Shown here one piece after another: positions 57,919 through 60,957 of a stretch of 64,000 nt of DNA. The DNA is from Nitrosopumilus sp. (GTDB lineage: Archaea > Thermoproteota > Nitrososphaeria > Nitrososphaerales > Nitrosopumilaceae). The stretch spans positions 1,856,001-1,920,000 of the forward strand of contig CBDBLO010000002.1 of assembly GCA_965207075.1 (NCBI GenBank). The letters run 5' to 3'. A program made the translations under genes and the position numbers. Position 1 is the stretch's first letter. Each line of letters starts with the position of its first letter. The notes under the pieces are model-generated. The model was not told where the DNA came from, did not search any database, and saw only the letters and a list, made by a program, of their open reading frames with translations.

Positions 57919-58209
57919 TCGGCGTAGGCGCCACGTCTGGGATGGCTACTTGGTGTGTGGCGTGCCCGCAGGCGGGCCGCCGGAATGTACTGTCGCCTGC
58001 TGCATCTCACCCGCAGCTTGACGCGCGACAGGCGTACGCCTTCGGATCTTCATGGAGGCGCCAGCCCCCGGGTTTGCGGCAAACTGGGGCAGCAGGGCAG
58101 GGACGGGACGGCGGGACCGGGGCGCAGCACGTGCCAAGAGACGGTGGCTGCCGCCTATGGTCAAGCTGGAAACTGGCGTTCCGATGCAGACGCGCCCGTC
58201 GTCGCCAGA

Positions 58210-58255
58210 GTTACCCGCAAACTTTCATAGAACTTTATGAAAGTTTGCGGGTAAC
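58210..58255. repeat. Palindrome P1 (20 bp perfect arms, spacer GAACTT)
   Basis: GTTACCCGCAAACTTTCATA-GAACTT-TATGAAAGTTTGCGGGTAAC. Confidence 0.97.
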
Positions 58256-58427
58256 CTCCGCGGCCCGCGGCACCCCACGCACACTGGAAGTTCGGCGACA
58301 GGCGCATAGATACTCCCGGCCTTGGCCGGCGCACGGACGGCAGGCCTGCCACATGCCCGCAGGAGGCAGGGCGGGCCGGCGGGACCGAGGGCGCAGCACG
58401 TGCCGAGAGACGGTGGCTGCCGCCGCC

Positions 58428-58471
58428 ATACCCGCAAACAATCATAGAGCTCTATGACAGTTTGCGGGTAT
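58428..58471. repeat. Palindrome P2 (19 bp arms, 2 mismatches, spacer GAGCTC)
   Basis: ATACCCGCAAACAATCATA-GAGCTC-TATGACAGTTTGCGGGTAT. Confidence 0.97.
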
Positions 58472-58813
58472 CTGCCGCATGCCCGCGGGCGCCTGCTCAG
58501 GCCGCCGCGGGGCGGGGCAGGACTCTCCCGTGACGGGCGTATCTGTTAGGTGACAAAGAAATCGAATATTCTGCATGTTTGCCACCATCCGTCCAAGCCT
58601 GCTCGGAGTCAGGCCCCGCAACCTGTCCCGCATGCCTGCGACATCAGACGCCAGGTTCACCGTGGCACACTAACAGCGGGAGACAAGGCGAGCCGGCGGG
58701 ACCGGGGGCGCAGCACGTGCCAGGAGGCAGCTGCTGTTGCTGTCGCCGCCGCCACCACCGGTGGCCAAGGAAGCGGGTGTTCTGATGCAGACGCGCCCGC
58801 CGCCACCGCCAGA

Positions 58814-58859
58814 GTTACCCGCAAACTGTCATAGAACTTTATGACAGTTTGCGGGTAAC
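58814..58859. repeat. Palindrome P3 (20 bp perfect arms, spacer GAACTT)
   Basis: GTTACCCGCAAACTGTCATA-GAACTT-TATGACAGTTTGCGGGTAAC. Confidence 0.97.
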
Positions 58860-59255
58860 CGCCGCATGCCCGCGGCACCACACGCACACGGGCAGGAAGT
58901 CCGGCGGCGGGCGCCTAGACGCCCCCTGTCCTGGCCGGCGCACGGACGGCGGGCCTGCCGCATGCCCGCGGGCGCCTGCGCAGGCCGCCGGGGCTCCCGC
59001 CAAACACTGCAAAAATGGGCAGGCTGCCGTGGCACAGTCGCGGCCCCGCCACGCATCTAGTCCGGAATCAGGCCCCGCAACCTGTCCCGTATGCTTGCAG
59101 CGTCAGACGCCAAGTCCGTCGTGGCACACTTTGACGGCGGGGGGCAGGGGGAACCGGCAGAATCGGGTGACGCGGCACGTGTCGGAAGGGTGGCTGCCGC
59201 CTGCTGTGCAGGCCGGAAGCGGGCGTTCCGATGCAGGTACGCCCAGCCACCGGCA

Positions 59256-59301
59256 GTTACCCGGAAACTATCATAGAGCTCTATGATACTTTCCGGGTAA
59301 C
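59256..59301. repeat. Palindrome P4 (20 bp arms, 1 mismatch, spacer GAGCTC)
   Basis: GTTACCCGGAAACTATCATA-GAGCTC-TATGATACTTTCCGGGTAAC. Confidence 0.97.
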
Positions 59302-59571
59302 TATCGCGGCCCGCGGCACCGCACGCACGGGCAGGAAGTCCGGCGGTGGGTGCCCCCGCACACCTCCGGCCCTGGCCGGCACACGGATGGTGGGCCTGTA
59401 CCGTATGCTTGCGGCATCAGACGCTAGATCCACCGTGACTCACTTTAACGGCGGGAGGCAGGGCAAACCGGCGGGACTGGGGACGCAGCACGTGTTGGGA
59501 AGGGACTCCCGCAGGCAACGATCAAGCCGGAAACGAATGTTCCGATGTAGGTACGCTCCCCCGTCGACGAC

Positions 59572-59615
59572 ATACCCGCAAACAATCATAGAGCTCTATG
59601 ACAGTTTGCGGGCAT
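59572..59615. repeat. Palindrome P5 (19 bp arms, 3 mismatches, spacer GAGCTC)
   Basis: ATACCCGCAAACAATCATA-GAGCTC-TATGACAGTTTGCGGGCAT. Confidence 0.97.
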
Positions 59616-59868
59616 CTGCAACGGCCTGCAGCACCGCACGCACGGGCAGGAAGTCTGGTAGTGGGCGCCTGCGCAGGCCGTCGTGGGGGCGGGACCGGCC
59701 CCTCCCGTGGCGGGTGTATCTGTCAGAAGGTGACAAAGAAATCTTTGTTACCTTTGCGCGTTTGCCATCGTCCGCTCCGGCCTGCCCGCAGTCTGGCTGC
59801 CGGGACCCCCGCCAAACACTGCAAAAATGGGCAGGCTGCCGTGGCACAGTCGCGGCCCCGCCACGCAT

Positions 59869-60957
59869 CTAGTCCGGAATCAGGCCCCGCAACCTGTCCC
59901 GTATGCTTGCAGCGTCAGACGCCAGATCCACCGTGGCAAAGCGGAGCTTGTGTCCCTGTATTGTAGCCGATTCATCATAATCGGTTCCCACTGATGGGTA
60001 CAGAAGCATTCCGGTGGAAGTCATCGACAGATTGTTGCCCTCGCGTTCCTGGGATCTCAGATACGAGTATATCTGGTATATGTTCGAGCTTTTCAATATT
60101 TCGCGGTGCCACCGAGTCGTGATTTCCGTGAATTTGGTATCGATTACTATTCGATGCGATCTGTCCGATTTTTCAACAATGATGTCGGTCTTCATTTCAG
60201 GCAGAATTTTGTCTATTCCTGGAGTGTGCGGTTCGGCGTGCCACTCAATCCACTCGCCCAGACGTACTTGCCACTTGTCAAGCACTATGCTGTAAAAACC
60301 ACCCACGGCCCTTTCAAATAGATTTCTTATCAGGCTCTCCTTGCTCCTGTCAGGCAAAACCACGTCCAGACGCCCGGACTCCTCCGTAGGTATCGTGAGA
60401 TCCCATGCCAGCTGTGCGGCGGCAATCATTCTCGCATCGTCCTGGCCGTGCCTTGCGTTCCTAATGCTGGCCGTATGCTGCCTTGCGTCAAACGAATTAG
60501 AGACTCCGTACCTTGCAAATGCGGCGGCGTCGATGCGGCAGCGCCGCTTGAGATTCTTGTCCTCGACGATCGCACCCAGTCGATCCAATGCCGCCATGAC
60601 GAACCTGTTTCTTGGGACGTCCACGGTAAACTCGTCAAAGCTGCACGCTATCTTGCCCCGCTGGAGCAGGTGCCGGCGTTTTGTACGGATGTGGTTGATG
60701 CGCCCCCTGACACGGGTCAGGTCGGCCTGTCTGCGCTGCAGCTCGTGGGTGAGCATGCGCCGCAGGCGCCGCTCCACCTCTGCCGTTAGGATCTCTGCAA
60801 CCAGATCCGGGATTTTGTCGGGATTCTGCTCCGCGGCAACCCTTTTTTCGGGCGTGTCCCGCAGCTTTTTGTAGAGATCCGACGCATACAGCATCAGCAG
60901 CCACAGGTTTCTGACCGGTATCTTGCCGATGGCTTCCGCGCCTGACTGTTCACTCAA
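59869..60957 (-). CDS. mcrC: McrC restriction endonuclease subunit
   Basis: IPVRNLWLLMLYA N-terminus, LFE..V, KTD...VIDTKF (PD-D/ExK), YQIYSYL, GMLLYP; TTGA overlap with the mcrB stop. Confidence 0.95.
   Translation of the reverse strand: MSEQSGAEAIGKIPVRNLWLLMLYASDLYKKLRDTPEKRVAAEQNPDKIPDLVAEILTAEVERRLRRMLTHELQRRQADLTRVRGRINHIRTKRRHLLQRGKIACSFDEFTVDVPRNRFVMAALDRLGAIVEDKNLKRRCRIDAAAFARYGVSNSFDARQHTASIRNARHGQDDARMIAAAQLAWDLTIPTEESGRLDVVLPDRSKESLIRNLFERAVGGFYSIVLDKWQVRLGEWIEWHAEPHTPGIDKILPEMKTDIIVEKSDRSHRIVIDTKFTEITTRWHREILKSSNIYQIYSYLRSQEREGNNLSMTSTGMLLYPSVGTDYDESATIQGHKLRFATVDLASDAASIRDRLRGLIPD

Follow-up and report, generated by a model that had tools for sequence, protein, structure and literature searches.

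The ParMRC system of plasmid R1 combines the site parC, which is composed of 11-bp direct iterons, with the ribbon-helix-helix protein ParR and the actin-like protein ParM. Here, we analyze a 64,000-nucleotide stretch of DNA from Nitrosopumilus sp. (contig CBDBLO010000002.1, positions 1,856,001 to 1,920,000; hereafter referred to as the window), in which five copies of a palindrome, termed P, form a non-coding array within an integrated element that also encodes a tyrosine integrase, an McrBC cassette and a ParM-like actin. Like ParMRC, the P-bearing elements have repeated cis sites upstream of a gene for an actin-like ATPase, their module includes a small, predicted DNA-binding protein of the beta-sheet type (AbrB) whose conserved C-terminal tail resembles the layout of ParR, and the site variants are specific to each element. 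In contrast to parC, however, the P sites are palindromes of 44-48 bp with an irregular spacing of 63-442 bp, the candidate adaptor has an AbrB/SpoVT fold and is encoded by a convergent gene located after that of a 1045-aa VirD4-like ATPase, and the replicon is integrated and resides in an archaeal host.

Other described systems share some of these features. The sopC locus of the F plasmid consists of repeated units that each contain an inverted repeat, and the Sulfolobus plasmid pNOB8 carries a palindrome upstream of its partition operon, together with the protein AspA; both systems rely on ParA-type ATPases and on ParB or winged helix-turn-helix adaptors. P resembles sopC in its repeated units with an inverted repeat and the archaeal conjugative plasmid pNOB8 in the presence of a palindrome upstream of an operon, but it is about twice as long and occurs in variant types. 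With the recombination sites loxP, FRT and dif, it has in common inverted arms, a short centre and an adjacent tyrosine recombinase gene, whereas its 20-24-bp arms, its often self-complementary centre, its association with two integrase families and with integrase-free loci, and the fact that no rearrangement was seen set it apart. Repetitive extragenic palindromes (REPs) and bacterial interspersed mosaic elements (BIMEs), which are associated with the Y1 transposase RAYT, occur in hundreds of copies throughout a genome. Similarly, P forms clusters of intergenic palindromes of several variants after the 3' ends of genes, but it is limited to 14 copies at six mobile-element loci of the host genome.

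In the main text of their study, Krupovic et al. (2019; PMC6563490) describe thaumarchaeal integrated elements with tyrosine integrases, VirD4/VirB4-type ATPases and TadC-like proteins, all of which are also found in the P-bearing elements. The terms 'actin', 'ParM' and 'centromere' do not occur in this main text, and 'palindrom' appears in its reference list only; its supplements may list related elements. In the literature that our search covered, no publication describes P or connects thaumarchaeal elements with ParM-like actins, AbrB proteins or palindromic sites. How Thaumarchaeota segregate their DNA and control mobile elements is essentially unstudied, and P provides a conserved, testable cis element with natural variants and a within-element matching rule, whose candidate partners are the proteins AbrB1, AbrB2 and AbrB3, the actin and the VirD4-like ATPase.

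The palindrome family and its distribution

The five palindromes of the window lie at positions 58210-58255 (P1), 58427-58472 (P2), 58814-58859 (P3), 59256-59301 (P4) and 59571-59616 (P5), without an assigned strand and with start-to-start distances of 217, 387, 442 and 315 bp. A degenerate 39-nt pattern matched the window at these five places only (10 matches, with both strands counted) and gave no match in 100 shuffles of the window, and the arms are symmetric at 19-22 of 23 positions. The palindromes listed in the first-pass annotation are thus confirmed as real, non-coding and far above chance expectation. P1 and P3 have perfect 20-bp arms around the centre GAACTT, while P2, P4 and P5 share the centre GAGCTC. 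In P4, both arms are changed symmetrically to a CCCGG/CCGGG variant. P2 is an imperfect palindrome (AA/TG arms) and P5 is of the same type, both showing a 2-bp arm mismatch, with AA on the one side where TG would be required. Since GAGCTC is self-complementary, P2, P4 and P5 represent continuous palindromes of 44-48 bp rather than two arms and a spacer. Of the initial description as arms around a 6-bp spacer, the inverted arms therefore stand, albeit imperfect in P2 and P5, whereas a separate spacer does not exist in the three copies with a palindromic centre.

The surrounding GC-rich repeat array (57942-59938, no strand) was characterised by period-3 analysis, Pfam searches and repeat comparison. 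Its period-3 signal-to-noise ratio is 1.2, as compared to 8.5-36 in five adjacent genes, and none of the six mechanically called open reading frames (ORFs) inside it has a Pfam match, in agreement with the initial impression that no credible protein is encoded over ~1.9 kb. The palindromes of the window are 86% similar to each other, as opposed to 60-63% for their 80-bp flanks and a shuffled baseline of 51%. When compared to the arrays of another P-bearing genome (G203), the common sequence is reduced to the palindrome and ~10 bp on either side. The flanking modules that had been described around each palindrome are real but degenerate and incompletely repeated, with GGGACCGGGGCGCAGCACGTG occurring only twice and CACGCACACGGGCAGGAAGT three times in the window array at up to three mismatches, and their lack of conservation in G203 identifies them as lineage-specific duplications. 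Judged from these sequence comparisons, selection acts on the palindrome rather than on its flanks.

In the 2.23-Mb host genome, P is present in 14 copies at six loci and nowhere else. A sample of 200 further genomes from the family, including 16 from the same genus, did not yield the motif. A looser pattern, applied to genome contigs, retrieved 47 stretches, 14 of which contain the full palindrome and come from three other high-GC Nitrosopumilaceae/Thaumarchaeota records. The remaining 33 stretches are bacterial; four of them were inspected and proved to be AT-rich, terminator-like hairpins without the outer arms, and all 33 were excluded from the P counts. The three additional genomes contain 11, 7 and 17 P sites, respectively, including in one case a five-copy array with a spacing of 124-258 bp. 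P was also detected in one metagenome contig, and no match was obtained in viral contigs. In total, 53 instances were collected, 49 of them unique. Every P locus examined is mobile-element DNA, in line with the earlier view of the palindromes as parts of integrase-bearing mobile elements whose defence cargo varies. The genome-wide distribution expected for a REP or a miniature inverted-repeat transposable element was not observed in the genome, and a search of the genome for the Y1/RAYT transposase (PF01797) yielded no match, with a control search recovering 6 of 14 known genomes. P is thus a real, conserved element that is specific to a small network of thaumarchaeal mobile elements. A protein of the integrative conjugative element (ICE) type is absent from five P-less genomes and present in 1 of 200 family genomes; given that these genomes are not independent, this pattern indicates that the protein and P share a narrow clade, and nothing more.

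Across the 49 unique sites, TCA, AA and CG blocks are invariant (49/49). Paired changes in the two arms occur at position 5 (AT in 41 sites, GC in 4), position 7 (CG in 39, GC in 8) and position 10 (CG in 35, GC in 11). About 75% of the sites are symmetric at positions 14-16; the central 4-6 nt are free to vary and are often asymmetric. Some palindromes join arm types that are seen elsewhere as symmetric sites; such mixing affects ~25% of the sites at positions 14-16 and is rare in the outer arms (2-4/49). Among the arm mismatches, G-T pairs (15) are not enriched over A-C pairs (28).

A second palindrome family, Q (GGTGACAAAGAAATCTTTGTTACC), is represented in the window at 59729-59752 (no strand), with a half copy at 58548-58563. 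Its full form measures 46 bp, with 22-bp arms around GGTAACAAAGAAATCTTTGTTACC, and further Q sites are located at G000 C2:1733313-1733484, 1783938, 1946177 and 573174. Q takes the place of P in sister elements, as seen for element C (Q) and element D (P), and the conjugative-type element ICE2 carries two Q copies where ICE1 has P. This interchange within near-identical backbones indicates that the structure was kept while the sequence was replaced. A similar architecture with a third kind of site is found at the paralogous locus C2:1251017-1251666, where five GC-rich palindromes with 13-17-bp arms lie between a distant AbrB3-like gene and a gene for a distant homolog of a 492-aa protein that is described below.

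In five of six pairs, the P site of the actin operon is best matched by the P site of a second operon located 40-80 kb away in the same element or genome, with scores of 44, 43, 42 and 41 out of 44 (the last pair sharing a rare centre) and a tied best score of 38 in the fifth pair. The sixth pair is not best-matched; element C and ICE2 have Q at both places. Such within-element matching is expected from a variant-specific trans factor, which would also explain the symmetric arm changes, although exchange between the two sites could instead be responsible. Two P copies at C2:710222 and C2:751775, identical at 47 of 48 bases and 41.5 kb apart, each lie upstream of an inward-facing operon, an arrangement suggesting that element D and a conjugative-type locus constitute one large element that starts at the 606-aa integrase gene of element D. 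The notion that these two copies could represent attL and attR was rejected, because the integrase gene and a VirB4-like gene would then fall outside the interval.

Elements carrying P and their actin-ATPase-AbrB module

P occurs in three element layouts. In the first, to which the window element belongs, an integrase gene (encoding either a 436-aa or a distant 606-aa type) is followed by one to three P copies, an operon for the actin-like protein (ALP) and the VirD4-like ATPase, and a convergent gene for an AbrB/SpoVT-type protein of ~105-112 aa. Compact elements comprise an integrase gene, a P array and a convergent AbrB gene, and a decayed piece of the ATPase gene, derived from its 3' end, often persists in them. 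In the third, conjugative-type layout, which features T2SSF/TadC and HerA/AAA_10/TraG-like genes, the order is a gene for a 61-aa AbrB protein, P, a conserved promoter and an operon for a 492-aa protein with an N-terminal membrane helix. None of the arrays contains ORFs or cassettes between the P copies. The only connection between the 436-aa and 606-aa integrases consists of paralogues that both match in tblastn at ~25-27% identity, and the conjugative-type P loci showed no integrase match within the 20-kb loci examined.

The position of P relative to the actin gene is largely conserved. Among 11 actin loci in the four P-bearing genomes, seven have P at most 1.2 kb upstream and two more, including the window, in which McrBC intervenes, at most 5 kb upstream; of the remaining two, one has Q only and the other neither palindrome. 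Repeated sites upstream of an actin-like ATPase gene, the hallmark arrangement of parC-type loci, are thus the rule. The actin, ATPase and convergent AbrB genes occur together at all nine assessable loci in three P-bearing genomes, and the same module is found in other genera (G001, 2/2 loci; G061, 2/5; G080, 1/2, weak). In G061, non-homologous palindromes with 17- and 20-bp arms lie between the actin gene and an integrase gene, and in G001, a long palindrome that is likewise non-homologous is located ~90 bp upstream of the actin gene. In a survey of 24 actin loci, all 10 palindromes found lay upstream of the actin gene, five of them within 300 bp, with two loci (accounting for 3 of the 10 palindromes) coming from the unpublished genome G077, and with loci matched on the minus strand turned by assumption, their orientation having been checked by tblastn for G001 and G061 only. 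A tandem repeat of a different kind, with four copies of a 170-bp unit, lies upstream of an ALP gene in G061 (L086:36-832).

In the AbrB proteins, an acidic linker connects the DNA-binding domain at the N-terminus to a strongly conserved tail at the C-terminus (SRMEKLRMK or SKLERLRLK), and AbrB2, searched as a single sequence, matched an AbrB/MazE/SpoVT chain in the PDB (7d2n, E 0.0036). In all compact and conjugative-type loci checked, the end of an AbrB-family gene lies 0.13-0.8 kb from P, with AbrB3 being present in 7/7 conjugative-type loci. Structure prediction for a complex of the actin with AbrB1 (gene at L013:6814-7152, minus strand) returned 'weak support' with a score of 0.57 (runs 0.57, 0.58 and 0.52; best control 0.00). 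In the calibration of the tool, 58 of 80 solved complexes and 2 of 110 mismatched pairs passed the mark, and passes at or below 0.60 comprised 7 of the 80 solved complexes and both mismatches; at this level, a pass is wrong in the majority of cases, except for pairs that were already plausible before the prediction. Contacts agreed to at least 66% among the runs, and the partner had a predicted local distance difference test (pLDDT) value of at least 58.

Direct tandem repeats of 33 bp are found just upstream of the AbrB2 genes of compact elements (L011:10707-10947, 6.8 copies; L069:8367-8555, 4.6 copies), where over-long ORFs translate them into repeated peptides. Iterons and sites of AbrB autoregulation are two roles that they could have. 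A relationship to P half-sites was dismissed, as a P half-site matrix gave no match of at least 6 bits in six regions.

Possible functions of P

It is tempting to speculate that P, by means of a protein-binding partner and a centromere/operator function that we infer, serves as a variant-specific dyad site akin to parC. We favour this reading tentatively over the others; the first-pass annotation had listed a centromere for the ParM-like actin among its alternatives, and this proposal now ranks first. In its favour are the location of P upstream of the actin gene in most loci, the conserved actin-ATPase-AbrB module, the unrelated long palindromes at the equivalent place in other genera, the conservation of the palindrome but not of its flanks, the symmetric arm changes, the matching of variants within an element, the closeness of AbrB genes to P and, as a weak pass, the predicted actin-AbrB1 complex. 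The palindromes would then be duplex dyad protein-binding sites in a maintenance/control module of thaumarchaeal integrated elements, with intact elements carrying one to three P copies upstream of the operon for the ParM-like actin and the VirD4-like ATPase. Each half-site would be read by a dimeric DNA-binding protein that the element itself encodes, with the AbrB/SpoVT-type proteins as candidates, and the resulting nucleoprotein complex would couple the DNA to an actin filament, similar to parC-ParR in type II partition, while also setting the expression of the adjacent operon. The palindrome variants may represent specificity types (incompatibility or immunity), and the five-copy array of the window may be a locally amplified cluster of several variants in an element in which the insertion of McrBC subsequently separated the sites from the operon. 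If true, this would amount to a type II-like system in archaea whose adaptor fold and centromere design are both new, and it would explain the upkeep of defence islands, such as the McrBC element, in sponge-associated ammonia oxidisers.

Several observations weigh against a centromere/operator. The sequence of the AbrB proteins does not follow the palindrome type, with the AbrB3 proteins of ICE1 (P) and ICE2 (Q) being 90% identical and AbrB2 of element C (Q) being nearly identical to that of a P-bearing element in G203. P also precedes the operon for the 492-aa protein, which lacks an actin gene, and the largest P arrays are found in elements without an actin gene. Moreover, P is located ~110-450 bp upstream of putative TATA boxes, a long distance if it were a simple operator, and the AbrB genes lie on the opposite strand, outside the actin operon. 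The actin-AbrB1 prediction is a weak pass only, the 33-bp repeats upstream of AbrB2 offer an alternative AbrB target, and a hairpin would likewise show symmetric changes. A more elaborate version of the centromere/operator reading, which we regard as quite unlikely, holds that specificity in an archaeal actin-based partition/control system with an AbrB-fold adaptor is set by the P and Q variants, that each large conjugative element marks two operons with its own variant, and that the compact elements and the window array are satellites, which display several variants to ride on or titrate the machinery of several helpers.

The main rival, second to a centromere/operator and itself a serious if somewhat unlikely candidate, is a hairpin or cruciform of the origin type (a transfer origin, a clt-like locus or a replication origin) that is recognised after folding or as a single strand and then handed over to the VirD4-like ATPase or the machinery of conjugation, with smaller elements carrying P in order to be mobilised. 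It would provide a first handle on DNA processing in thaumarchaeal conjugation, and it readily accommodates a stem that is kept by symmetric changes around a variable, often asymmetric centre of 4-6 nt, the very high stability of the predicted hairpins (z -9.4 and -8.5) and the interchangeability of P and Q as 46-bp palindromes. In addition, P is common to the conjugative-type loci, actin-ATPase elements and compact elements of the same genomes and adjoins a VirD4/TraD-like ATPase gene. However, no relaxase, Rep or HUH protein was recognised in Pfam, PHROGs and NCBIfam scans of the neighbouring genes, nor was there a Y1 transposase; tandem arrays of up to five origins would be unusual, and the arms show no excess of G-T over A-C mismatches. 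A conjugative oriT has a nic site that is served by a relaxase and an accessory protein, and no relaxases are known from archaeal conjugation. Template-switch correction can render quasi-palindromes symmetric, so that the symmetry could also come without function. The stable hairpins would equally suit a role as RNA, either in a hairpin that terminates, insulates or stabilises the 3' ends of transcripts or in a non-coding RNA array. So would the placement of P, which follows the 3' ends of integrase and AbrB genes, precedes the conserved promoter of the operon that comes next and is often flanked by convergent genes. This role appears improbable, though, as only two tRNAs and nothing in the array reached the thresholds of Rfam 15 between positions 55000 and 62000, no T-tract was seen after P in the window, and a terminator would require neither the invariant TCA, AA and CG blocks nor the matching of variants within an element. 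The inter-palindrome segments fold like shuffled sequences on five of six strands tested (z -0.32 to +0.46), with values of -2.4 and -1.3 for the two strands of the segment containing the Q half copy. As a purely selfish or mutationally self-renewing repeat that spreads among mobile elements with no function for them, P would be expected to end sharply at the palindrome edge amid unrelated flanks, as it does, and to form clusters of variant types reminiscent of BIME arrays; a solo copy indeed adjoins a DUF3800 gene and an IS630-like transposase gene. This option is nevertheless highly improbable in light of the small number of copies, all in mobile-element DNA, the failure to find a RAYT/Y1 transposase, the lack of an evident target-site duplication at P and a position relative to operons that is kept across four genomes.

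The first-pass annotation had proposed the palindromes as lox/dif-like sites on which the adjacent integrase or host XerA may act, together making up a platform for the capture, excision or amplification of cassettes. In at least five loci, P does lie 70-530 bp beyond the point where an integrase gene ends, and variable cargo abuts it, with McrBC at the right edge of the window array and a 2.2-kb insert ~30 bp to the left of the first P in element E. Moreover, some sites mix arm types, as a central crossover would produce, and partner sites within an element have matching variants. Known tyrosine-recombinase core sites have arms of 11-13 bp around a 6-8-bp crossover region, whereas those of P, though inverted, are longer. 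A core site would also be tied to one recombinase lineage, but the same P accompanies two distantly related integrases and is found at loci where no integrase was matched within the 20 kb examined. The mixing of outer-arm types is rare, becoming common only at positions 14-16, and no ORFs lie between the P copies. G201 has a collinear counterpart of the three-copy array of element E (three sites each, 88-94% identity). The window element is integrated at tRNA-Lys, which the integrase gene separates from the array, so that P is internal to the element and not an att site. Together, the two integrase families, the integrase-free loci, the lack of cassettes and the collinear array leave the cassette platform unsupported, and the cargo differences beside P and the mixed-arm sites are the reason why we retain recombination at all, as the least probable of the functions considered. 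P is thus not a generic REP and probably not a lox/dif-like cassette platform. It also differs from integron attC sites, imperfect palindromes that separate promoterless gene cassettes beside an IntI-type integrase, with no coding signal between the sites and an integrase that is located at a tRNA gene and only distantly XerA-like. The resolution of hairpin telomeres, another alternative raised initially, involves a single perfect palindrome next to a protelomerase gene on a linear replicon and does not fit tandem arrays that lie inside elements integrated in the chromosome at tRNA-Lys.

Gene neighbourhood of the window element

At its left end, the window element borders on a tRNA-Lys(TTT) gene (56214-56288, plus strand; ARAGORN and Rfam), its likely integration target, and a tRNA-Lys(CTT) copy adjoins a sister element. 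No 16-mer of the tRNA region is repeated within 140 kb to the right, where attR was sought. A 20-nt match to the 3' end of the tRNA-Lys gene (one mismatch, E 0.05) at G000 C2:1951765-1951784, 39.5 kb to the right, falls within the gene for the 606-aa integrase of element B, in its 5' part, and could mark the far boundary of a composite island. The tRNA gene is followed by that of the 436-aa tyrosine integrase (56431-57741, plus strand). As a single sequence, this protein has no match in Pfam, PHROGs or NCBIfam, and in single-sequence PDB searches neither it nor the ORF '593' gave a hit below E 0.2; a profile of 38 integrase homologs, however, matches archaeal XerA (5hxy, E 3e-6), and the family conserves R184, R329, H358 and Y368, as is typical of tyrosine recombinases. 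This profile match and the assignment of McrC and McrB by Pfam substantiate the array neighbours named at the outset.

The McrC-McrB cassette (59869-62684, minus strand) has a G+C content of 52-55%, as compared to ~60-68% in its surroundings. The homology of the window element with sister element B restarts at 62777, at the ALP promoter, indicating that the cassette was inserted between the array and the actin operon. The McrC ORF extends ~70 nt into the last array repeat, and its annotated C-terminus is probably a read-through into an insertion boundary near 59940. Within the N-terminal part of the McrB gene lies a 24-bp tandem repeat (61875-61973, 4.1 copies, 97% matches). PADLOC returned generic matches for McrB (Type II REase, E 6.6e-14; mad8; IetA; Avs2). 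Of 17 sequencing-run entries listed, 15 contain part of the stretch, with no RNA run among them. Unitigs from four sequencing runs in Logan, all of them short, contain joints (such as 58859 to 62777) that fit the paralogous elements B, E and F.

Downstream of the cassette, a putative promoter resembling a B recognition element (BRE) and TATA box (AAAAATCCGCCTTATATG; 62783-62800, plus strand) was recognised by eye, and elements B, C and D have the same motif in front of their operon. It precedes the gene for the ParM/MreB-like actin (62816-63652, plus strand; Pfam MreB_Mbl, E 1.5e-11, and ALP_N), which has 219 homologs, some of them labelled ParM/StbA by their sources. The 1045-aa VirD4/TraD-like ATPase gene starts at 63690 (63690-64000, plus strand) and continues past the window, followed by the convergent gene for a 112-aa AbrB-type protein. 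The N-terminal part of the ATPase is similar to DUF8128 clusters in a protein atlas at 0.93, which serves as a lead only, and PADLOC assigned the ATPase a generic ATPase match (mad8) only. No PADLOC match was obtained for the actin, AbrB1, AbrB2 or four other proteins scanned, and the atlas search with the '593-aa' ORF gave no usable match.

Two mechanical ORFs beside P that were termed '121' and '462' (L009:9437-9802 and 10523-11911) were discarded as genes, because their homologs contain in-frame stops and their composition is junk-like; they are probably artefacts of GC-rich DNA and served as synteny markers at the DNA level only. In element E, the 2.2-kb insert between integrase gene and array (C2:2130835-2133063) is missing from the otherwise collinear G201 element, and its ORFs have no Pfam match. 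The AbrB2 gene of the same element (C2:2134209-2135399) is fused in frame to ~293 codons that are 99% identical to C2:1514041-1514919 and ~70% identical to three more copies, repeated occurrences that point to an insertion sequence, probably in or before the AbrB2 gene. Finally, a 462-aa serpin gene (Pfam, E 8e-111; L008:6647-8035) directly adjoins the 606-aa integrase gene of element D.

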